NCBI GenBank assembly: GCA_031423775.1 | Contig: JANPGF010000038.1 | Location: 1 to 35,558, forward strand | Reading direction: 5' to 3' | Length of the DNA: 35,558 nt | DNA from: Candidatus Kaiserbacteria bacterium | GTDB taxonomy: Bacteria > Patescibacteriota > Minisyncoccia > Phycocordibacterales > UBA918 | Shown here: in pieces, positions 3,282-32,807 of the stretch | Layout: each line of letters opens with the position of its first letter | Position numbering within the stretch: position 1 is the first letter of the stretch | The notes under the pieces: generated by a model | Told to the model about the DNA's origin: nothing | Databases searched by the model: none | The model's input: the letters and a program-made list of their open reading frames with translations, nothing else | Position numbers and translations under genes: made by a program

Positions 3282-3695
3282 TTATGCAATTTCGACGTGC
3301 TGTTTGAAATTATTCAGTATTGCCTGCCAGCCCTCCTGCTGTCGTTCGGGGGTATTTTCAGTTTCAGGGTCGAATTCTTCGGTCACTTTCGTTTCAGTTT
3401 TTGACAAAGCTTCAAAGGTTACCGTTACCGTCCGACCGTCGCCCATCTCGTACGAGATTATCTGTAGTGGTACAACTTTCGTATACGTCCCCCCAAAATC
3501 GAAACTGACACTCCCATCTTTTGCGGCCATGGTGGCAGAAAAGACCCCGCCAACCGTCAAGTTATTCTCGGCTCGTGGGCATTCCCAATCATCTGACGCG
3601 TGATTCCAGATAGTAATATGTACCGGATCAATCCAATATTCCCACACCTTTTCAATTGGACCACCCACAACTGCTGAAATGGTTATTTTGTTCAT
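3282..3695 (-). CDS. SRPBCC/AHA1 (activator of Hsp90 ATPase 1-like) domain protein
   Basis: Motifs KVWEYW..P.HI..WN.ASDDW.CP, MAAKDGSVSFDFGGTY and QQEGWQAILNNFK. Confidence 0.92.
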   Translation of the reverse strand: MNKITISAVVGGPIEKVWEYWIDPVHITIWNHASDDWECPRAENNLTVGGVFSATMAAKDGSVSFDFGGTYTKVVPLQIISYEMGDGRTVTVTFEALSKTETKVTEEFDPETENTPERQQEGWQAILNNFKQHVEIA

Positions 3696-3712
3696 ATAAA
3701 CCTAGTATACAA

Positions 3713-4468
3713 CTAGTATCCTTCTGCTTCTAGTTCAGCCCGAGTAAGCGGTTTATACACCATATCACTCTTGTCGGGGATGTTCCGCTCTCGATAAATC
3801 TGCATCAAACGCGTAAAAAACACCTGGGCAGGTTTCTGGCGTTCTGCTGGTAACTTACTAATAGCCTGCTCAAGCCAGTCGGGATAAAACAGTAGTATCT
3901 TCACTAACTGCCCCGTAACAGGGTCGACCGTTTCCATCCATGGCACATGGGTATCAACAAAGGTAAATCCTCCAGCGGCGTCATGGATACAATCCTGAGG
4001 TCCCCACGGATCGGAAGCATGCCATATACCAGCTTTTATCGCATCGTCTAAAAATTGTTGCACGGGTTCGTTCTGTTCATTTTGTGCTGCTGCCTGATCC
4101 CATAGCTGACTACCCGCTTCAGTCAGACTCTCTGAATCGCCAGCTGCAGCAATGTACGCGTTTTGAATCTCACTATGTAAAGGATCTGCATCAGTCTTGA
4201 TGAGGGGTGTCCGCGCAAACGCTCGCGCACCTGTCCCATCGGGGATATTGCCTGACTGACTGATGTCGACAATATGCGCAGGGAAAAGCAGGTGGCATAT
4301 TTTTTGAAAATAAAATAATCCGCGTATTTGTTCATTACTATAGTTTTCGTACTTAAATTCGAGTGTGGCATGTGCGGCATCGTTTGGGAGACGATAGACT
4401 CGTTTTTCTATTCCTTCACCTATTTGATGAGGCGTATCAGAATAAGGAGTAGGTGATTCAAATCGCAT
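3713..4468 (-). CDS. Hypothetical protein, possibly kinase-like
   Basis: 251-aa ORF with N-terminal IGEGIEKRVY (Gly-loop-like) and FTFVD. Confidence 0.7.
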   Translation of the reverse strand: MRFESPTPYSDTPHQIGEGIEKRVYRLPNDAAHATLEFKYENYSNEQIRGLFYFQKICHLLFPAHIVDISQSGNIPDGTGARAFARTPLIKTDADPLHSEIQNAYIAAAGDSESLTEAGSQLWDQAAAQNEQNEPVQQFLDDAIKAGIWHASDPWGPQDCIHDAAGGFTFVDTHVPWMETVDPVTGQLVKILLFYPDWLEQAISKLPAERQKPAQVFFTRLMQIYRERNIPDKSDMVYKPLTRAELEAEGY

Positions 4469-8362: not shown

Positions 8363-9160
8363 TTAATTTGTTTGTTCTGTATCTGAATAATGAATGAGAT
8401 ATTCTCGCAGCGACAAGGTAGCTAAATAGGTATCAATATAAGCTTTGGTTGCGTCTATATCACTTTGACCATACCAGCCATACAGCATACCGCGACGAGC
8501 AAAATCATCTGCTGACTCTTGATATTGCACTGCGTGATCTGGATCAAATAGAGCAGCTGCGGCAGCTAATAGATATCCATCAGCAACACGCATACTGGGG
8601 TACACATACTCCTTTGGAATATCACCTATTGCAGTCACGCCGGTAATGCGATTTGCCAAAACTGGCTGCTTGTACATTTCTCCTAGCTGCTGAATCCGGG
8701 TATGCAGGTGCGTAAACAATGCACCAAGCCGTGACTGGTCGGTCTGCAATTTCAAAAATTCATTCACTGACGTCGAACCGATTTTAAACACCTGGTCCGC
8801 GGTATCCGTCGCCACCCCCGTTCGGAGCGTAGTGCTTGAGACACCTTGTATCGCGGCAAAATACGTCGCAGCATCACTTTCATTTGTATTACCAGGTTCT
8901 GGCACTGTTATTGCATCTAGTTGCGCAAATAGCGCTTTTTGATCAGCGTCTTCTTTTACCAATGCATCTACTTTTGCTTTTAATTCGTCCGATAGAGCAA
9001 AACTAGTGGTTGGTAGTGCCGGATAGTGCTTATGTGATACATAATACAAATAGCCTCCCAATAGGACTCCTGTGCCAACTAAAAGACTGACAATTATTTT
9101 AAACCATTGCGGAATACACCACTTTTCTCTTAAGATCACATCTGACTGATTATCATTCAT
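8363..9160 (-). CDS. Membrane-anchored protein with degenerate PAP2/class A acid phosphatase-like C-terminus
   Basis: TM at about aa 21-40. YPSMR and ARRGMLYGWYGQSDIDA align by eye to the YPSGH and R...G.H..SD motifs. Confidence 0.65.
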   Translation of the reverse strand: MNDNQSDVILREKWCIPQWFKIIVSLLVGTGVLLGGYLYYVSHKHYPALPTTSFALSDELKAKVDALVKEDADQKALFAQLDAITVPEPGNTNESDAATYFAAIQGVSSTTLRTGVATDTADQVFKIGSTSVNEFLKLQTDQSRLGALFTHLHTRIQQLGEMYKQPVLANRITGVTAIGDIPKEYVYPSMRVADGYLLAAAAALFDPDHAVQYQESADDFARRGMLYGWYGQSDIDATKAYIDTYLATLSLREYLIHYSDTEQTN

Positions 9161-12619: not shown

Positions 12620-13837
12620 CTACTGACAGGTTCCCACAGTTGCAGTAATAGTTCCCAGATGAGTAAATATCTTACGATGAATCGAACCATTTCCATCTTG
12701 TTGCCAATTATTTTCGACACTAACGGTTTGTGGCCCAACCCCCGGCTTTACGATAAATCCTCTACGATGCCCCCATAACCAATGATCACCGCCTGTAATA
12801 CTGTGTGTCATGAAGTAATCCACAAAGGCTGGCCCTTGCACTGCATAATCTGACTCATTCCAATACCCAACTGCTGTATTTGTATTATCGTCATAGTCTT
12901 GGCGTACATAGAGCAGATCACCACCAGTAAACTTGGCGTCACGATACGTATAATTTACATCTGTCCAAGCACCAACACCTATCAGAGCACCTTTGGGAAC
13001 TTGGATAGTGACTGTTTTAGTCATATTAAAGGCTTCCCGGGCCTGATATCCAGTATTATAAATATCACCTTTAATTGTGACCGCACATAAACTAGGGGTA
13101 GGTTTTGTTGAGAGGCACGTACAAATTGGACGATGATTGTAATCCGAGGATATTTCAGAATCCTTACACGCATTTGCGTCACTGCTCACCATCGGCTGAC
13201 CTGAAGCATTACAGCTAGTCAAGTAATCTCCCGCATTACAACTACATGCCGCACCTGATACATTACGAGTATTATTCAGCGTTGAATAGGTATGAATCGC
13301 TGATAAGTCGGTCTCGGACGAAACTGGATCCGAAGGATCGAAACAATTATCACCATTTTTATCACAGTAGTTATTCGCCCGTATACTATTTGAAAATTGC
13401 GCATAATCACTAGCACCATTACCACCTGCATGTAATTCTAAAATTGCATTGCTATTATTCCATACCGAACCGTTATTATCGCGATCATATAGAAATTTCA
13501 TTGTTGATATACCTGGCGTCTCAACAACAGCTGCAGTCACCCACCGAGGGACTGCCGTGTCTGAATTAACATAAACCACAAGAGGTTTATCCCCAAATAA
13601 TCCGAGTGTATTACCAATCCCCAAACTGCCGATTTTAGTTTGTGTACTCGACCCTACGTTTAATGGTGCTGCAACATTATTCTGTGGAGGAACGCTCCCG
13701 CTTTCAGGCGGAAACCAGACACTTTCATCATAGGCTTTGATAAAACTGTAGCTCGAAAAGCCGACAAGGATAATCCCAACACACAGACCATAGATAATGT
13801 TTTTAGAAGAATTCATAAAATGAGTTAATGAACTCAT
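12620..13837 (-). CDS. Secreted Cys-containing surface protein
   Basis: N-terminal hydrophobic segment, PP.NNVAAPLNVGSSTQTK.G.L motif, YCDKNGDNC and a Cys-rich central part. Confidence 0.75.
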   Translation of the reverse strand: MSSLTHFMNSSKNIIYGLCVGIILVGFSSYSFIKAYDESVWFPPESGSVPPQNNVAAPLNVGSSTQTKIGSLGIGNTLGLFGDKPLVVYVNSDTAVPRWVTAAVVETPGISTMKFLYDRDNNGSVWNNSNAILELHAGGNGASDYAQFSNSIRANNYCDKNGDNCFDPSDPVSSETDLSAIHTYSTLNNTRNVSGAACSCNAGDYLTSCNASGQPMVSSDANACKDSEISSDYNHRPICTCLSTKPTPSLCAVTIKGDIYNTGYQAREAFNMTKTVTIQVPKGALIGVGAWTDVNYTYRDAKFTGGDLLYVRQDYDDNTNTAVGYWNESDYAVQGPAFVDYFMTHSITGGDHWLWGHRRGFIVKPGVGPQTVSVENNWQQDGNGSIHRKIFTHLGTITATVGTCQ

Positions 13838-13908
13838 TGTAGGAGCCTATTACACTTATTGCTACTCTTTTTACCCACAACAGTCTATATTTTGGTTTTA
13901 TGGTAATG

Positions 13909-13936
13909 TTGTAAACTGTCTCTACTGTGGTATAGT
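13909..13936 (+). promoter_or_regulatory. Sigma70-type promoter of the tRNA locus
   Basis: TTGTAA-16 nt-TATAGT with extended -10 TG at 13928-13929. Confidence 0.6.
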
Positions 13937-13973
13937 GCAGGAACTTTTTTGTAATACAGAAAGGTTACCAGAT

Positions 13974-14037
13974 ACGCCTATAGCTCAGCCGGTAGGTAAA
14001 ACAGTCTCCCAGACTGTTTTACCCCTTAATTAAGGAG
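13974..14037 (+). repeat. tRNA-Lys 5'-half pseudo-copy 1 with inserted hairpin
   Basis: 13974-13995 matches tRNA 14152-14173 at 21/22. Then a 13-bp perfect stem (13995-14023) and the remnant TTAAGGAG. Confidence 0.85.
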
Positions 14038-14063
14038 CTTAGTCAAAACACAATTTAATATAT

Positions 14064-14137
14064 GCGGCTATAGCTCACCTCGGTCCGCGCAAACTGCATC
14101 CTATGCACTTTGCCCTTATTAACGAGAAGCGTCCGCA
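14064..14137 (+). repeat. tRNA-Lys 5'-half pseudo-copy 2 with inserted hairpin
   Basis: GCGGCTATAGCTCA matches the tRNA start at 13/14. Hairpin GCAAA-C-TGCAT/ATGCA-C-TTTGC, then remnant CCCTTATTAACGAGAAGCGTCC versus tRNA CCCTTTTAAGGAGAAGGTCC. Confidence 0.75.
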
Positions 14138-14151
14138 CATAACACATACAT

Positions 14152-14224
14152 GCGCCTATAGCTCAGCCGGTAGAGCAGCTCCCTTTTAAGGAGAAGGTCC
14201 CAGGTTCGATCCCTGGTGGGCGCA
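14152..14224 (+). tRNA. tRNA-Lys (anticodon TTT), CCA not encoded
   Basis: Acceptor GCGCCTA/TGGGCGC, D-arm GCTC/GAGC, anticodon loop CTTTTAA, T-arm CCAGG-TTCGATC-CCTGG and discriminator A. 73 nt. Confidence 0.97.
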
Positions 14225-14231
14225 CTCGAGC

Positions 14232-14275
14232 AAACAAAAACACAACACCTTATATAAGGTGTTGTGTTTTTGTTT
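14232..14275. terminator. Long terminator-like palindrome after the tRNA
   Basis: AAACAAAAACACAACACCTTA-TA-TAAGGTGTTGTGTTTTTGTTT. Confidence 0.75.
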
Positions 14276-14358
14276 AGTAAGTGACCTGCGTCACTTACGG
14301 GCTCGAGTGCGAGACGGAGTCATGTTTTCTTCTCCTCCCTAGAGGAGAAAACGGACGA

Positions 14359-14427
14359 GTCGGGGTCGCGGGTACTTAGTATAAATATGAACATAGTGAA
14401 ATATTTTACTTAGTAACCCGTGACCAC
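14359..14427 (+). repeat. Structured repeat copy A (GTCGGGGTCG...GTGACCAC)
   Basis: 69 nt. Stem GGTCGCGGGT/ACCCGTGACC and ACTTAGTA/TACTTAGT. Preceded by AGACG and a TTTTCT...AGAAAA hairpin. Confidence 0.85.
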
Positions 14428-14493
14428 AAGTGCGCCCTTACTCGTACGATATGACACCCGTACCGTTCCATCCCGTCGCGGGTGTCACATGTA

Positions 14494-14520
14494 ACCTGAA
14501 CAGGCAAGACCTGTTCAGGT
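14494..14520. repeat. REP-like hairpin copy 1
   Basis: ACCTGAACAGG-CAAGA-CCTGTTCAGGT. The 23-nt core is identical to 16196-16218. Confidence 0.8.
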
Positions 14521-14554
14521 ATGTTTCTGTCCTCCTTAAGGACAGAAACCGCGG

Positions 14555-14624
14555 GTCGGGGTCGACAGCACTTACTAGAATTGGAGCCGCAGTCGAACAA
14601 TTATAGTTAGTGACTGGTGACCAC
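14555..14624 (+). repeat. Structured repeat copy B
   Basis: 70 nt with the same ends as copy A. Shares the 18-nt ACTTACTAGAATTGGAGC with copy C. Preceded by hairpin TTTCTGTCCT/AGGACAGAAA. Confidence 0.85.
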
Positions 14625-14651
14625 CACGTGCCCCTTTACTATACTTTACCC

Positions 14652-14958
14652 ATGTCTCTCACTTCCGACAAATACCGAGAAGCTCGTGGCGGTTATTCCA
14701 GCACGCATACCATCACTTGCGAAAAATGTGATTTATTTATCTGCAACTACCAAAAGGACGGCCCCCGGGAATCTCCGCCGTATGTACATCGATAGAATCA
14801 CATCACCTTCTGTCTCTATTTCTAAAAAGGAACTACTCTGCCCACAAGGTCATCTACTTGGTATTAAAATCAACTACGAAAAAGAAGACCGTCCGGCTTA
14901 CCGTCTATTTGTCGACGCTGTCGTAAAAATAGTGACTTCATCCAAAAAAGTTCGGTAA
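14652..14958 (+). pseudogene. Small putative Zn-ribbon protein split by a +1 frameshift in a C5 run
   Basis: One frame reads MSLTSDKYREARGGYS...CEKC...YQKDGP and the next reads GNLRRMYIDRI...CPQGH...RLFVDAVVKIV. Removing one C at 14762-14766 gives a 101-aa protein. Confidence 0.75.
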
Positions 14959-14977
14959 GTGTCTCGCGATGGGGCAC
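14944..14977 (+). repeat. 34-nt tRNA-3'-end-like direct repeat, copy 1
   Basis: AAAAAAGTTCGGTAAGTGTCTCGCGATGGGGCAC, 29/34 identical to 16125-16158. Confidence 0.8.
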
Positions 14978-15022
14978 TAAATACCAGCACTAAAGCATTC
15001 GCTTTGGGGCTGGTATTTAGTA

Positions 15023-15041
15023 GCGCCCACCAGGGATCGAA
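15023..15041 (-). repeat. Inverted exact copy of the tRNA-Lys 3' end (19 nt)
   Basis: GCGCCCACCAGGGATCGAA is the reverse complement of 14205-14223. Confidence 0.92.
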
Positions 15042-15073
15042 AGACGCAAGCCGGGGTCCCTCTGGGCCGGCAC

Positions 15074-15141
15074 GTCGGGGTCGCGAGTACTTACTAGAAT
15101 TGGAGCGTAGCGCCTGATTATACTTAGTGATTTGTGACCAC
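15074..15141 (+). repeat. Structured repeat copy C
   Basis: 68 nt. Stem GGTCGCGAGT/ATTTGTGACC with three G-T pairs. Preceded by AGACG at 15042 and a GCCGG...CCGGC hairpin. Confidence 0.85.
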
Positions 15142-15194
15142 AGACACAGCAATTTTTAATGATACAATCATAGTTGAATTTAATTTAATAAAAT

Positions 15195-15983
15195 ATGAAC
15201 CGCAATATTTCTACAACGGTTGGATTGATAATTATATCTTTGATGGCGCTCGGTGTTGGTTATGTTGTATTCCAATCTGGAAAAAATGCTGAGAATAACG
15301 TCTCAACAATTTTACCAACTCAACCGGTTGAAACGAAAAAAGCAACAACAAGCCCCGCAGATCCAACACCTACTAAATCAGTGATCACTTTACGAAAGGA
15401 TTATGTCTGTCCTGATATTACTAACGATTTAACTATGGGTTCGGTTGATGAAAAAATAAACGGCCCGGAGTATTTCAAGGGACAAGTTTCTAATCTCCAA
15501 ACCTTCTTCGTGCAATACTTTTCAATTACTGACTCCAATTTTGTTGATGGTATTTTTGGTCCGATCACTGAAAAGTACGTGCAGCAATTCCAAGCAGCTG
15601 AGAAGCTTTCCGCCACCGGTAAAGTAGATACGATTACTCGCTCTCATATCTTAGCCCTATGTACCGCAACTGCTATTCCTATACAAAATATAAAAATCCT
15701 TCCTAATTCATTACCTTCATCAATTACTCTAGATCCATTACAAGGATTACAAGAAAGTGGAAATCTGACGAAGGGAGGATTCAGAATCGAATATCTTAAC
15801 AAAGATACTCATACCATTCGAGTGACTGGGCGGACGATATTAGGCATCGGTACTCAAACAATCTCACTGAACGAAAAACCGATAATTACAAATAACTGGC
15901 CACTTGCTTTGGAAATAAGCTTCCAGAAAGTAAACGCTGACGGCTCAATCAGTCTTGATCTCAAGACAGTTTCCACTGATTAA
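15195..15983 (+). CDS. Membrane-anchored protein with a peptidoglycan-binding (PG_binding_1-like) domain
   Basis: N-terminal TM, T/P-rich linker, and VSNLQ...DGIFGPITEKYVQQFQ....L..TGKVD..T. Confidence 0.85.
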   Translation: MNRNISTTVGLIIISLMALGVGYVVFQSGKNAENNVSTILPTQPVETKKATTSPADPTPTKSVITLRKDYVCPDITNDLTMGSVDEKINGPEYFKGQVSNLQTFFVQYFSITDSNFVDGIFGPITEKYVQQFQAAEKLSATGKVDTITRSHILALCTATAIPIQNIKILPNSLPSSITLDPLQGLQESGNLTKGGFRIEYLNKDTHTIRVTGRTILGIGTQTISLNEKPIITNNWPLALEISFQKVNADGSISLDLKTVSTD

Positions 15984-16124
15984 AACTTCGTTATGGGTTA
16001 GAGACCTCTTGTTTTGTCTTTTATTGCTCACTCAAAGTCATAGTTAGTAGTTATACTCTAAACAACCGCCGATACATTTCGACAACAATCGCTTTTGACT
16101 CTTAACTCCAACCATTTCCCCCAA

Positions 16125-16158
16125 AAAAAAGTTCGGTGAGCATCTCGCAATGGCGCAC
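16125..16158 (+). repeat. 34-nt tRNA-3'-end-like direct repeat, copy 2
   Basis: AAAAAAGTTCGGTGAGCATCTCGCAATGGCGCAC, followed by a terminator-like hairpin AAAAACCTCCC-TTCG-GGGTGGTTTTT. Confidence 0.8.
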
Positions 16159-16190
16159 AAACAAAAAACCTCCCTTCGGGGTGGTTTTTA

Positions 16191-16223
16191 TTAATCTGAA
16201 CAGGCAAGACCTGTTCAGATTAA
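16191..16223. repeat. REP-like hairpin copy 2
   Basis: TTAATCTGAACAGG-CAAGA-CCTGTTCAGATTAA (14-bp stem). Confidence 0.8.
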
Positions 16224-16247
16224 CTAATTTCTACTTTTGCTTATATA

Positions 16248-16700
16248 TCAAATGCAGCTTCCTTTTTTCTGTTCCTCCTTTACAAAGCCAAATTTTCTAT
16301 AAAAATTCTGGGCCTTCACATTCGCCTCATGTACTTCCAACAAAATTGGTACACCTATCTCACTTGATTCGTGGATCAGATCTGTAAGTATCGCTGTTCC
16401 AATACCTCTGTTTTGAAATTCTGGCAAAATTTGAATACCTCCTACATACAGTGATTCGAGCGACCTCACAATTCGCAAACGTCCAATATCGACTCCCTTA
16501 TATTGAATGATTTCTATCTCTGTCGGTACAAACTTCTCTTGATAGGCCCTAAATTCAGTTTCACTATCAAAGAACCTGCCAGGATGCAAGGCCTCAACTA
16601 CTGGACGCATAGCATCTGTAGAGACGCGAAATAAAAAGGCCACGTCTTCTGCAGTTGCTTGACGTAACGTGTAATCAACCTGCAGGAGCTCTGTGTCCAT
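16248..16700 (-). CDS. GNAT family N-acetyltransferase
   Basis: LRQAT.ED, IQILPEFQNRGIG (motif A) and N..AQNFYRKFGF. Confidence 0.92.
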   Translation of the reverse strand: MDTELLQVDYTLRQATAEDVAFLFRVSTDAMRPVVEALHPGRFFDSETEFRAYQEKFVPTEIEIIQYKGVDIGRLRIVRSLESLYVGGIQILPEFQNRGIGTAILTDLIHESSEIGVPILLEVHEANVKAQNFYRKFGFVKEEQKKGSCI

Positions 16701-29965: not shown

Positions 29966-30001
29966 AAATTCGCAATATGCCCGTAGGGCATTTGCTCATT
30001 T
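29966..30001 (+). repeat. 36-nt motif AAATTCGCAATA-N13-TTTGCTCATTT, copy 1
   Basis: Same 12-nt and 11-nt arms and same spacing as 33241-33276. Confidence 0.8.
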
Positions 30002-31095
30002 CATTTATTCATAGGCATTACCAGATACCGCAAGGTTGTATCTGACGAACCTTGTATAACGAGAGGTCGACCAATACCTGCAAAATGCATTACGATACTT
30101 TCATCACTAACGTGACCAAGTGGGTCAATCAAATACTGTTGATTGAAGTTGAGAGTTAATTCCTGACCTTCAGTATGCACTTTAACAGTATCGGTAGTAG
30201 TACCAATCTCACCATTTTGAGATGCTACCACCAAATTATCGCCATCCAACTTTATCGTTACCTGCATAAACTTATTCAAGAACACATGAGTCTTTTTAAA
30301 TGCCTGTAGAAGGTCATTTTTAAGCACTGTTGTGTGTGTAACGTATTCTTTTGGAATTATCTGCTCATAGTCCGGAAACGAGCCTGAAATCAATCGTGAG
30401 GTGATGTAGACCCCTTCTGAAAACGAAAGAGCACACTGATTTTCATTTATAATCAACATTGGGTCAGTTTCAAGTAAGTCGCAAATTCTAGCGAGTTCTA
30501 TAGCGTTTTTTTGTGGAATCAATAATGTTTGGTCGAGAATGAAATTCTTCTGAGGTACAGTTTTCTCCATCAAGCGAAACGAATCGGTCGCCACAAAAGT
30601 AAGCGAGTGTTCTTTCTTTTGTTGAATATAAATACTTCCGAGTTCTGGTTTAATTGATGACTGTGAAGCTGCAAACGCAACTGTTTTAATACCGAGTGCA
30701 AAAAGATTTTTCTGAATCGCTGTTCCTGGTGCAGTTAACTTTGCAATTGAAGGGAACTCATCATAAGGAATAGTATTAATAGTTGTCTTTCCACTACCAC
30801 TATCAACCGTAAGCACTCCCTCCACAACAGAAAGTACCACCTCTTTCTTAGTAATGTACTGAACTGCAGACAATAGTGTACTGGCAGAAACTGCCACAAC
30901 CCCTTCCAGCTCCACAAAAGCTTCCACTGTTACCTCAATACCAATCTCAAGGTTTGTTGCTTTGAAAGTGACGATCCCGTCTTTTACGGTGATGAGTACA
31001 CATTGGAGTACTGGTAACGTTACATGCTTGATACTTACTCGAGTGATAAGTCCAAGTGTGTGTATAAGTTTTTGTTGGTTGATAGTTATTTTCAT
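30001..31095 (-). CDS. dnaN: DNA polymerase III beta sliding clamp
   Basis: ATNLEI, VATDSFRL, SRLI.G.FPDY, FN..YL.D and YLVMPM. Confidence 0.97.
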   Translation of the reverse strand: MKITINQQKLIHTLGLITRVSIKHVTLPVLQCVLITVKDGIVTFKATNLEIGIEVTVEAFVELEGVVAVSASTLLSAVQYITKKEVVLSVVEGVLTVDSGSGKTTINTIPYDEFPSIAKLTAPGTAIQKNLFALGIKTVAFAASQSSIKPELGSIYIQQKKEHSLTFVATDSFRLMEKTVPQKNFILDQTLLIPQKNAIELARICDLLETDPMLIINENQCALSFSEGVYITSRLISGSFPDYEQIIPKEYVTHTTVLKNDLLQAFKKTHVFLNKFMQVTIKLDGDNLVVASQNGEIGTTTDTVKVHTEGQELTLNFNQQYLIDPLGHVSDESIVMHFAGIGRPLVIQGSSDTTLRYLVMPMNK

Positions 31096-31421
31096 TTTTT
31101 TTCTATTTTACTCTCCTCTATTAGGGGTGTGGAAGTGTGCATAAGCTAAAAATATGTTGTATTTATAAGGTTACTGTAGCACCCTTCTTTCTAAAATACC
31201 TGTGCATTAGCTTGTGGATACTGTTAATTTCTACAGGGATAACTCGAAGGGGTAGTTAAAGGCGTGGATAACTACACTATTTATACCCAGATTTGAGATC
31301 ACAAAAAAGACTATTTGAGAGTTTATACTAGTGTTAGTACCGTACCAACAGGTACCTTATTACAGAGTATTCCCCAGGTGGCTGTGGGTAAACAAAAGAC
31401 CGTACTAGTACGGTCTTTTGT
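31096..31421. promoter_or_regulatory. oriC candidate (dnaA-dnaN intergenic DnaA-box cluster)
   Basis: TGTGCATAA 31136, TGTGCATTA 31201, TGTGGATAC 31213, CGTGGATAA 31263 and TGTGGGTAA 31383, with AT-rich flanks. Confidence 0.8.
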
Positions 31422-31424
31422 TTA
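31389..31424. terminator. 36-bp perfect palindrome at the dnaA stop
   Basis: TAAACAAAAGACCGTACT/AGTACGGTCTTTTGTTTA. Confidence 0.7.
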
Positions 31425-32807
31425 TTTAAGAAGTAAACGAACTTGGGTTATCTCCTCTTCCAGATCAGGATCAGTTTTCAGGTCCTTCTTGATTTTTTCA
31501 CAGCTGTGGATGACTGTTGTGTGGTCTCGACCGCCTAGTTTTTTACCAATTGCTGGGTAGGATACCTGGAAATCCTCGCGGAGGATGTACATAATGATTT
31601 GGCGAGGTTTAACCACTTCCTTGCGGCGGGTTTTTTCGTAAATACTCGCCTGGTCTATGTCAAAGAAACGAGCCACCTTATCTACTACATCAGATACTGC
31701 CAATGTTTTACGTGGGCGGCTACTATTTTTAATAATAGCTTTTACTTCATCAATTGTTAGGGTTCGTCCCAAGAGCTGCGACTGACACATAATGGTATTC
31801 AGGGCTCCTTCGAGTTCCCGGATGTTGCCTTCGATGGTGTGAGCTAAATGTTCAACCACGTCATCACTGAGTGAGATGCTATTTTGAGCAGCTTTAGCCC
31901 GTAGGATAGCAGCACGAGATTCGGTATCAGGTGCTGGAATATCGACAATCATTCCTTGTCCAAACCGTGAACGGAGTCGGTCTTCGAGTCCTGCGAGGAG
32001 GGCTGGGTGCATGTCACTAGAGAATACAATTTGCTTATTTGTATCATGGAGGGCATTAAAGAGGTGAAAGAGTTCCTCTTGGGTCTTTTCTTTTGTTGCC
32101 AGGAATTGCACGTCGTCCATAATCAATACATCATACTGACGGTATTTATCCTTGAAACTGTTAGCGGTACCACTCTGGAGAGAGTTGAAATAATCAACTG
32201 CAAATCGTTCACTGGTAACATAAAATACCTTCTTACCAGTCTTTTTAATTTGGTTCCCTACTGCTTGGATGAGATGAGTTTTACCGTGACCGGTTTTACC
32301 ATAAATGAAGAGTGGGTTGTAGGCGATACCAGGCTTTTCTGCAACTGTTTTTGCAGCAGCGTGAGCGAGTGCGTTGTATGGTCCAACCACAAATGTTTCG
32401 AATGAATACTTTGGATTAAGATTGTCACTCTTGTTGATGTAGTAGTCTTCGAGGGGAAGGGCAGCATTAATGGTCTGAGTCTTTGCTGTCTCGCCACGTC
32501 GATCACTGCGCTGCATCACAGCGTACTCAATACTTCGTACATATGGTGTAATCTCACGGAGAGTTTTGAGAATCATTGACTGGAATTTATCAGCGAGCCA
32601 GTCGCGAACAAATACACTAGGGACGCCAATAGTGAGGGTGCCGTCTTCGAGTGAGATGATGTGTGTATCACGGAACCAAGTTTTAAAGTTGGCTGGTGTG
32701 ATAGATAATTCAATTTTTACTAACGCATTATCCCAGAGTTGTTTGACATCAATTTGCTCTGTGCGAACGATGCTATTGGTCTGATGTGGGTGTGTTAGAG
32801 GAGGCAT
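31422..32807 (-). CDS. dnaA: Chromosomal replication initiator DnaA
   Basis: YNPLFIYGKTGHGKTHL, DDVQF, EELFHLFN, NIRELEGAL and GGRDHTTVIH. Confidence 0.99.
   Translation of the reverse strand: MPPLTHPHQTNSIVRTEQIDVKQLWDNALVKIELSITPANFKTWFRDTHIISLEDGTLTIGVPSVFVRDWLADKFQSMILKTLREITPYVRSIEYAVMQRSDRRGETAKTQTINAALPLEDYYINKSDNLNPKYSFETFVVGPYNALAHAAAKTVAEKPGIAYNPLFIYGKTGHGKTHLIQAVGNQIKKTGKKVFYVTSERFAVDYFNSLQSGTANSFKDKYRQYDVLIMDDVQFLATKEKTQEELFHLFNALHDTNKQIVFSSDMHPALLAGLEDRLRSRFGQGMIVDIPAPDTESRAAILRAKAAQNSISLSDDVVEHLAHTIEGNIRELEGALNTIMCQSQLLGRTLTIDEVKAIIKNSSRPRKTLAVSDVVDKVARFFDIDQASIYEKTRRKEVVKPRQIIMYILREDFQVSYPAIGKKLGGRDHTTVIHSCEKIKKDLKTDPDLEEEITQVRLLLK

Follow-up and report, generated by a model that had tools for sequence, protein, structure and literature searches.

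A folded, tRNA-anchored module carrying antisense to its own target site in ultra-small bacteria: a candidate non-autonomous insertion element

The window considered here is a 35,558-nt stretch of DNA from a Candidatus Kaiserbacteria bacterium (GTDB lineage Bacteria; Patescibacteriota; Minisyncoccia; Phycocordibacterales; UBA918), comprising positions 1 to 35,558 of the forward strand of contig JANPGF010000038.1 (assembly GCA_031423775.1), in which a tRNA-Lys gene is followed by a stack of three related modules. The module contains a stretch antisense to the 3′ end of the gene behind which it lies, here termed the guide, followed by a folded scaffold and, often, by a second, sense copy of the gene end. 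On balance we think it probable that this is a non-autonomous insertion module whose target is specified by the guide, and that the window holds a stack of three copies, one of which (E_C) would have come with a gene. The source genome (G000) amounts to 1.24 Mb in 105 contigs, is 87% complete and contains 36 tRNA genes and one tmRNA gene according to ARAGORN; it was compared with other genomes of its genus, order, class and phylum, and the source metagenome was examined as the assembled contigs of two DNA runs. Handles are used where genomes (G), contigs of the own genome (C) and loci (L) need to be told apart.

The tRNA-Lys Locus

The target gene of the locus, tRNA-Lys(ttt), lies at 14152–14225 (RF00005, 68 bits) on the + strand, as do all features of the locus described below. 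It is followed directly by module E1 (14226–14443), which was delimited by folding, repeat search and anatomy and carries no cargo. The left target copy for E1 consists of the last 5 nt of tRNA-Lys and a 6-nt trailer, behind which stand a perfect terminator palindrome of 22 + 22 nt (14232–14275), a hairpin designated HP1 with the loop CCTGCG (14276–14298), the guide, an 11-nt antisense of the tRNA end and trailer (14301–14311), a linker, AGACG (14312–14316), a second hairpin designated HP2 (14324–14352), a 69-nt hairpin, A (14356–14428), and a tail with a second antisense of the tRNA end (14426–14441). The next module, E_B (14449–14943), is degenerate but scores 95.5 bits over 14496–14627 with R1, a covariance model built from linker, HP2 and 69-nt hairpin. 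It comprises a first hairpin (14449–14490), HP2 (14523–14549), 69-nt hairpin B (14552–14625) and a frameshifted Zn-ribbon open reading frame (ORF; 14653–14958), and a repetitive extragenic palindromic (REP) hairpin is inserted at the position expected for its guide (14496–14518).

The third module, E_C (14978–16124), carries cargo and is bracketed by direct repeats. The left repeat is a 34-nt degenerate tRNA-Lys 3′ end, composed of a T-loop start and an acceptor-like end (14944–14977), and the right repeat is a second such copy (16125–16158). Within E_C are a hairpin (14976–15021), a 19-nt guide (15023–15041) that is 100% complementary to the tRNA-Lys 3′ end and is followed by AGACG, HP2 (15050–15071), 69-nt hairpin C (15073–15142) and, as cargo, a gene with a peptidoglycan (PG)-binding domain, PG_binding_1, which was confirmed by profile search (15195–15983). 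An intrinsic terminator follows the second 34-nt copy (16163–16189) and may be the one that first followed the target copy, by analogy with the rplL site described below, where the original terminator lies behind the right-hand target copy. The REP hairpin at 16191–16223 belongs to a separate REP/RAYT family and lies outside the module family. Two modules of the window were found to fold far beyond shuffled sequences, with z = −11.5 and −5.9.

A sequence-only reading of this locus had described it as an array of gene cassettes. All of the parts which it listed were recovered in place by repeat search, folding, and tRNA and domain calls. Its Zn-ribbon gene (CxxC ... CPxGH) lies where it was reported, but the reading frame is broken and no Pfam or NCBIfam family matches it. 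The N-terminal half occupies the frame 14653–14795 and the C-terminal half the frame ending at 14958, the break lying near a run of five C at approximately 14759–14768. None of the metagenome contigs covering the ORF shows an indel at this run, so that a pseudogene or a programmed shift is indicated rather than an error of this assembly alone. The 34-nt repeat had been taken for a general cassette end; this part of the proposal falls, since the two window copies (family D5; 84% identical, the second aligned as 16125–16161) are all that the genome contains and represent a local target copy.

Anatomy and Recurrence of the Module

The 69-nt repeat was counted with a hidden Markov model across the own genome, which holds 36 copies. 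At 12 of the 37 tRNA and tmRNA genes a copy begins 113–131 nt past the 3′ end on the same strand, and at two additional genes a copy is present within 230 nt; several others are so close to a contig end (no more than 350 nt) that the assembly may have cut off a tRNA. This pattern lies far outside chance expectation. In the common order, the gene end (T) is followed by a short trailer, an intrinsic terminator, the guide, the linker, HP2, the 69-nt hairpin (ending ...GACC) and, often, a sense copy of T. In the long-guide form the guide measures 19–25 nt, extends from the T-loop to the acceptor end and is split by HP1, which has the loop CTGC, whereas in the short-guide form HP1 comes first and the guide corresponds to the last 5 nt of the tRNA and a 6-nt trailer. 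The module is roughly 150–250 nt long and non-coding.

The match between guide and neighbouring gene was assessed independently of the scaffold, as exact antisense of at least 9 nt to the last 25 nt of the tRNA plus 8 nt of its trailer, located no more than 400 nt downstream, with mismatched tRNA/downstream pairs and upstream regions serving as controls. Antisense to the own tRNA was found for 23 of 34 tRNAs, whereas mismatched pairs gave it in 75 of 1122 cases and upstream regions in 3 of 32. Sense copies of the own tRNA end, no shorter than 9 nt, lie downstream in 14 of 34 cases (47 of 1122 for mismatched pairs) and are 9–26 nt long; the automatic search that pairs guides with right-hand copies is noisy for the short-guide type. 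The length of the target repeat tracks that of the guide, at approximately 9–10 nt for 11-nt guides, 16–24 nt for 19–25-nt guides and at least 27 nt at rplL. Because the target repeat covers the segment that the guide matches, this suggests that the paired segment is the one that gets duplicated.

Scaffolds and guides appear in varied combinations. E1 and the module behind tRNA-Leu(gag) share 96% identity over 50 nt in HP2, although the guide, HP1 and the 69-nt hairpin of these two mosaic modules differ, and a chimeric copy (C86:17256) combines a tRNA-Gln guide with a tRNA-Val right-hand copy. Tandem units that have neither T nor terminator occur frequently. At other tRNAs the slot between guide and right-hand copy is filled by a second scaffold family, which consists of a long hairpin starting CCGATTGAG..., the sequence GTAC and a small hairpin ending ...GACC. 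It is found on contigs C49, C76, C83, C86, C37 and C6 of the own genome and at loci L016, L018, L050, L087 and L094, and is at times nested in the 5′ end of the 69-nt hairpin (C76:23651 and C45:2865). Yet other scaffold types occur in other families of the order (L077, L089, and L097).

Guide and target end together lengthen the terminator into a long palindrome, and in many copies, those at rplL and tRNA-Leu(cag) among them, the guide continues the 3′ arm of the terminator exactly, in inverted form. The antisense continues into the genomic trailer and not into a complement of CCA, which led us to reject the reading of the guide as a tRNA primer-binding site and implies that it derives from the gene or its primary transcript. 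These features would also be expected if the module spread by an RNA-templated route, one of the forms of accretion put forward from the sequence alone, in which read-through RNA, folded back at the terminator, would be reverse-transcribed into an inverted gene end and reinserted. However, such fold-back copying does not account for the hairpin that splits the guide or for the scaffold downstream of it. The own genome encodes one reverse transcriptase (530 aa, in an island on C15), which is defence-like and nearest to Drt4/Drt3b, below cut-offs; nothing indicates an RNA template, and this route is considered exceedingly improbable.

Most modules are solitary and without a gene. The description of the locus as a cassette array is therefore apt for the stack in the window and for one other, on C15, where three modules with tRNA-His-like guides and right-hand copies, separated by single genes, lie downstream of tRNA-His and of an island with a serine recombinase, but it does not extend to the modules at large.

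Three side observations concern the same slot behind tRNA genes. At L074, L087 and L077, in other families of the order, a short motif that includes GCGAAGC, the mini-hairpin also found at the tip of the 69-nt repeat, replaces the terminator between tRNA and guide. Behind tRNA-Ile(gat) (C28:4059–4340) the 3′ end of the gene recurs as an exact 26-nt direct repeat approximately 177 nt downstream, around an insert of a different kind, which has no guide and contains an AT-rich conserved stretch that is also present behind tRNA-Val on C86. Directly behind tRNA-Leu(caa) (C35, approximately 3600–4290) lies an ORF that, judged by eye, resembles a LAGLIDADG-type homing endonuclease.

Conserved Fold of the Scaffold

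The fold was examined in an alignment of 22 copies from the linker to the end of the 69-nt hairpin. Standard pairs occupy 97.1% of 591 cells, and compensatory changes occur at 16 of 27 pairs. Double-sided changes were counted in 102 cells, compared with 28.4 ± 4.9 in shuffled alignments, none of 500 of which reached 102, and when the pairing partners were slid by 1–3 columns at most 10 double changes remained. A 3-bp helix formed by the linker (GAC, GGC or ACC) with the bases before GGGG covaries as well. Among cells that are not Watson–Crick pairs on the + strand, G.T outnumbers A.C by 12 to 1, and the invariant closing helix GGTCG/TGACC contains one more G.T. This bias points to the sense strand of the upstream gene as the strand that folds, either as RNA or as single-stranded DNA. 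No described RNA family accounts for the fold: in a comparison with the covariance models of Rfam 15 only the tRNA passed its gathering score, nothing within 14226–16160 outside the terminator/REP region reached E < 0.4, and neither HEARO nor any other Rfam family matched the module. A promoter role for the 69-nt hairpin was also considered and dropped, as a consensus scan of 13700–16400 yielded 4 sites against 5.3 expected, with none inside any of the repeats.

The 69-nt hairpin itself has conserved outer and inner boxes with covarying spacers between them, conserved bulges, a variable tip (GCGTAGC or GCGAAGC) and the joint at its 3′ foot, and in this respect resembles the attC sites of integrons. 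In a strict integron-like scheme the hairpin would be attC-like and the T-loop and 3′ end of the tRNA attI-like, and a Xer enzyme would exchange one strand, the product being resolved by replication, so that cassettes are captured singly. Wobble pairs tolerated on the + strand only, the stacks of single genes in the window and on C15, and the presence of a Xer-like enzyme in 147 of 151 genomes of the class are all in keeping with such a scheme. Against it, the searches turned up no integrase of the integron type: both tyrosine recombinases of the own genome are Xer-like and score 74 and 65 bits with the integron integrase model, for which the cut-off is 265. Nor is there a single platform with promoter and array, the modules being scattered over many targets and mostly empty, and integron sites have neither a long guide nor target repeats of 10–27 nt. 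An integron proper is therefore judged unlikely. The platform that the sequence-only reading had called integron-like is indeed anchored at a tRNA, modular and variable in cargo, but its mechanism is unproven, and since that mechanism lacks support the likeness is best taken as an analogy of shape.

Distribution and Non-tRNA Targets

Of 24 genomes of the genus searched by BLAST with the second unit of the window, 23 contain the repeat, which was not detected in 16 genomes from as many other families of the order. Antisense to the own tRNA was nevertheless present for 10 of 45 tRNAs (114 of 1980 mismatched pairs), and an own sense copy for 13 of 45 (142 of 1980), in five genomes drawn from five other families, the modules there having a like anatomy and scaffolds that are either homologous or different. 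At the level of the class, R1 matches 41 of 150 other genomes sampled, compared with only 4 of approximately 144 genomes of the phylum outside the class. Four of five class loci inspected comprise a tRNA, a matched split guide and an 18–20-nt right-hand copy; the fifth has only a right-hand look-alike. The recurring tRNA-anchored unit first recognized in the window is hence found behind many tRNAs of the own genome, throughout the genus and across the class.

Anchoring is not exclusive to tRNAs. On contig C65 of the own genome a module lies behind rplL, identified by the L7/L12 C-terminal domain, with a guide that is antisense to the last 20 nt of the reading frame and a right flank that is a diverged copy of the gene end and terminator, and in G004 and G020 a module lies behind ftsZ. 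We take the tRNA, rplL and ftsZ genes to be highly expressed, and what the targets have in common is a position immediately ahead of such a gene's terminator. Whatever its function, the element is common, being associated with about two-thirds of the tRNAs of the own genome and present in about one-quarter of the class genomes sampled; it breaks assemblies at tRNAs and is absent from Rfam.

Filled and Empty Sites and Turnover Between Species

The clearest comparison of a filled with an empty site is provided by rplL. The site is filled in G018 and G096 and empty in G001 and in G024, the closest relative found (holA 82% identical). In G018 the right-hand target copy is continued by the same terminator and downstream sequence as stand directly behind rplL in G001. 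From this alignment of the filled with the empty site, and the terminator they share, it appears that the module, a second copy of the last ∼27 nt and a new terminator were inserted within the end of rplL, leaving the gene undamaged.

Module state, that is, presence or scaffold type, differs at no fewer than 6 of the 17 anticodons common to G000 and G024, whose tRNAs were matched by anticodon alone, with at least one pair differing in context; tRNA-Leu(caa) was rejected as a filled/empty pair on the grounds that the two genes lie in different contexts. tRNA-Lys carries different forms of the module, and different scaffold families, in different species. Where it bears the short-guide form, a change in the trailer hexamer is matched by one in the guide across seven species, TCGAGC being accompanied by GCTCGA here and AGACGC by GCGTCT in G024 and G096, while G007 has 1–2 mismatches between hexamer and guide. 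Within the sample, one contig of run X2 joins 14225 to 14444 and so omits exactly E1, the shorter side of the joint measuring 26 nt; this single contig hints at an empty site for E1. Other joints in the metagenome (14428→14307, 14469→15119, and 14624→16715) probably stem from related organisms or other copies and are not used as evidence.

Gene content behind tRNA-Lys also varies between species, as had been anticipated for a cassette array. The stretch from tRNA-Lys (beside a SpoU methylase gene) to holA/polA is syntenic across the genus, whereas the content of the gap between tRNA-Lys and holA differs. In G007, G018 and G096 it contains modules alone; G024 has an NYN-domain gene, G001 and probably G113 an RHH gene together with ParE and a MazG-like gene, G109 a Fic gene and G019 an ion-channel gene, and the own genome contains the Zn-ribbon pseudogene, the PG-binding gene and a GNAT gene. 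The PG-binding gene has no close homologue among 127 other genomes of the genus.

Candidate Mobilizing Enzymes and the Case Against Insertion

Several observations weigh against insertion and are collected here. Guide-specified insertion does not account for the way in which each copy acquires a guide matching its site. Distances between the species compared are large (holA 45–82% identical), so that filled and empty states could reflect old events, and the pairing of G000 and G024 tRNAs by anticodon, with at least one pair in differing context, limits that comparison in turn. No circular or excised form was seen in the metagenome contigs, where the 26-nt-side contig is the sole hint of an empty site. 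At tRNA-Ser(tga) and tmRNA the guide is perfect although the right-hand copy has decayed, which is also compatible with a host function.

In such a host-serving role the module would be a cis-acting fold, of RNA or DNA, that pairs with the 3′ end and trailer of the gene ahead of it or of that gene's transcript. It could serve, for instance, to strengthen or insulate termination where genes are very active, to form a double-stranded site for processing or to keep back the 3′ end of the tRNA, and it would have been spread and homogenized by recombination rather than transposition. That modules always lie on the same strand at a fixed distance behind the gene, that the guide stays perfectly complementary to the working gene end while the right-hand copy decays, and that guide and target end extend the terminator into a long palindrome are all compatible with this role, as are the conservation of primary sequence across the class, the lack of a dedicated enzyme among the families searched and the G.T over A.C bias, which implies folding of the gene-sense strand. 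However, only about two-thirds of the tRNAs have a guide, many genomes of the class lack the scaffold and the rplL site is empty in the closest relative, while target repeats, tandem stacks, chimeras and unrelated scaffolds in one slot are traces of the kind left by insertion elements. Little read-through RNA is expected, moreover, since a terminator stands between gene and guide. A host-serving fold, the main rival reading, is regarded as doubtful; if it were correct, the module would represent a widespread device acting on tRNA 3′ ends.

The remaining points against insertion come from the search for an enzyme. As the sequence-only reading had noted, the window encodes no recombinase or transposase (none of 27 ORFs scanned with Pfam), and searches of the own genome for six recombinase/transposase families gave no hit on the window contig. 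A serine, tyrosine or HUH recombinase that tracks the element, which had been suggested as a partner, was not found. The IS110 DEDD domain (PF01548) is absent from the own genome and was detected in 7 of 61 genomes of the genus, above the cut-off in 4 of these, and it is missing from the complete module-bearing genomes G007, G019, G006, G004 and G010. In the class, 22 of the 41 genomes with the scaffold and 71 of the 109 without it encode Y1/RAYT transposases (PF01797), which therefore do not track the scaffold and are absent from G162, G236, G262 and G289 despite 5–8 scaffold hits in these genomes. The TnpB-type domain (PF07282) is absent from the own genome, and the Nop domain (PF01798) from all 61 genomes of the genus, a search that divergent Tas proteins may escape, the TIGR-Tas study having relied on a custom profile (PMC12045711). 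Among the scaffold-positive genomes of the class, 28 of 41 encode exactly one tyrosine recombinase and one encodes none. An exact 22-nt scaffold motif, finally, had no match in viral contigs. IS110, IS200/605-RAYT, TnpB, TIGR-Tas and a dedicated tyrosine recombinase, each tested as a partner, are therefore unsupported, and the enzyme, if it is of a known family, would be a housekeeping one; otherwise it would be of an unknown family or be supplied by an element outside these genomes.

Four Y1/RAYT genes are present in the own genome, with shorter REPs of other kinds beside them; the genes on C87 and C102 have their own distinct short palindromes and that on C72 has none that is obvious. The REP hairpin of the window (core CTGAACAGGCAAGACCTGTTCAG; 14496–14518 and 16191–16223) is present on about 8 contigs. 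It belongs to the RAYT on C29, where it forms an inverted doublet (8531–8569) immediately ahead of the Y1/RAYT gene.

Large serine recombinases, searched for in the own genome only, are encoded at C15:13873–15525 (536 aa) and C81:274–1950 (559 aa). Both genes converge on and overlap the 3′ end of a tRNA gene, tRNA-His and tRNA-Val(tac), respectively, and probably belong to separate integrated elements. Their position raises the alternative that the modules are scars of classical tyrosine or large serine integrase elements at tRNA 3′ ends, the antisense being an incidental part of an attachment site. Such elements classically leave direct repeats of the tRNA 3′ end, and the three C15 modules lie downstream of one of the two recombinases. 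Yet the modules are small, uniform units with a covarying fold, unlike random remnants, they occupy 12 or more targets per genome, each with a matched guide, and they also lie behind rplL and ftsZ; with a single tyrosine recombinase in most positive genomes as well, this alternative is considered very unlikely.

A Proposed Mechanism

On the reading preferred here, namely guide-specified insertion, the module would insert directly ahead of the terminators, at the 3′ ends of genes for tRNAs and tmRNA and of a small number of strongly expressed protein-coding genes. The + strand would fold, as single-stranded DNA or as RNA, and the guide would pair with the target segment and thereby set where the end of the scaffold is joined, with cutting and joining carried out by an enzyme supplied in trans. 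The ends of the module would come to be bracketed by direct repeats of the target, while the gene stays intact, and genes could be carried between scaffold and right-hand copy, as in E_C. Repeated insertion at one target would stack modules and single genes, with the newest beside the tRNA. The T-loop part of the guide (...TCGAA) matches every tRNA and could, speculatively, permit jumps to new tRNAs followed by correction of the guide. The data show the anatomy, the correspondence of each guide with its own target, the duplication of the target, the covariation of the fold, the filled and empty sites, the differences between species and the distribution across the class; active mobility, the role of the guide, the folded-strand intermediate and the order of events in the window are inferred.

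The history of the window may be reconstructed along the same lines. An old insertion, E_B, would have brought the Zn-ribbon gene; its guide region has since been taken by the REP hairpin, and its right-hand target copy would then have decayed to the 34-nt look-alike. E_C, with its perfect tRNA-Lys guide and the PG-binding gene, would have entered this look-alike and duplicated it, which would explain why the 34-nt copies share oddities and why a terminator follows the second of them. E1 would have come last, at the true end of the tRNA.

In its fullest form the proposal is a tentative one: the modules may be protein-less mobile DNA of ultra-small bacteria of the candidate phyla radiation (CPR) type, in which a self-encoded guide of 11–25 nt names the landing site at the 3′ end of a highly expressed gene, joining is effected through the folded scaffold by a host or other enzyme, and the paired segment is duplicated. 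As the scaffold is separable from the guide, one scaffold occurring with various guides, the system would be naturally programmable. If guide-specified insertion is true, it would add a further natural route to programmable DNA insertion beside CRISPR-associated transposons and IS110 bridge RNAs, with an insertion package of only 150–250 nt without a gene of its own, and would make the hunt for the enzyme a testable goal. It would also explain the turnover of accessory genes (toxin–antitoxin, Fic, NYN and cell-wall-binding genes) behind tRNAs in genome-reduced bacteria that have few classical mobile elements.

Other Features of the Window

Upstream of tRNA-Lys lie two ∼90-nt units (13972–14150, + strand; family D4, 3 copies with spacings of 90 and 88 nt), each of which starts with a copy of the first 21–24 nt of tRNA-Lys, including a 21-nt exact match to the 5′ part of the gene. 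In these units a hairpin is followed by an anticodon-arm-like stretch, an acceptor-like end is present in the second unit and the T arm is absent. They could be degenerate tandem copies of tRNA-Lys or a 5′-end counterpart of the modules, and their membership in the system is uncertain.

The rest of the window carries housekeeping genes, including dnaA, dnaN, polA, holA, ruvA, ruvB, tyrS and a penicillin-binding protein gene. As dnaN and dnaA lie on the minus strand at 30001–32807, the replication origin is probably located near ∼33 kb. tRNA-Lys and the plus-strand modules would then run head-on against the fork, with the leading-strand template as the folding strand, as judged from this single locus.

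Comparison With Known Systems

No described mobile element or RNA family matches the module, which lies outside all of the families tested and lacks a defining feature of each. Word searches of open-access main text returned no description of such modules, which is weak evidence of absence.

Integrons share with it an imperfect hairpin of ∼60–140 nt with conserved ends, a covarying middle, bulges and a joint at the 3′ foot, in addition to stacks of single, promoter-less genes and strand-specific folding. They differ in having a dedicated integrase and a single attI platform, whereas the sites here, at least 12 per genome, are dispersed and mostly without genes, and in lacking the antisense guide and the 10–27-nt target repeats that only the modules possess. 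The likeness is one of shape.

Transposable elements of the miniature inverted-repeat type (MITEs) come to mind with the 69-nt hairpin if its arms are read as inverted ends, but these arms covary instead of keeping one sequence, the target repeats range from ∼9 to at least 27 nt and equal the guide segment, where a MITE would have a short target duplication of fixed length, and no parent element was found. IS200/IS605 and REP/RAYT elements are likewise small hairpin elements that act as folded single strands and are frequent behind genes, and the own genome has RAYTs and REPs. Recognition of IS200/IS605 cleavage sites depends on pairing to an internal guide that is short, at 4–5 nt as opposed to 11–25 nt in the modules, in which the target is moreover repeated on both sides and which Y1/RAYT genes do not track.

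Elements at tRNA sites that lack an integrase, such as remnants of the cis-mobilizable element (CIME) type and tycheposon satellites, agree with the module in their insertion at tRNA and tmRNA 3′ ends, in direct repeats of that end with the gene left intact, in tandem accretion and in cargo that varies between relatives. Direct repeats of the tRNA 3′ end around the insert are accordingly present in the modules, as well as in other families and orders. The module is set apart by its length of 150–250 nt with a covarying fold, its internal antisense to the target, its use of protein-gene targets and the lack of a matching integrase in most genomes.

Guides with tandem spacers are described in the TIGR-Tas study for IS110, tandem interspaced guide RNA (TIGR) and box C/D RNAs, and that source also places a TasR clade with stem-loop arrays in CPR bacteria (PMC12045711). 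The modules depart from TIGR-Tas in being dispersed, one per gene, and not arrayed beside a protein gene, and in the absence of Nop from the 61 genomes of the genus. A further difference, which applies to IS110 and TIGR-Tas alike, is that both halves of the module guide pair with one and the same strand and that the target is duplicated. The bridge (seek) RNA of IS110/IS1111 elements is nevertheless like the module in that the element encodes a two-part guide around a hairpin, complementary to the target and in principle programmable.

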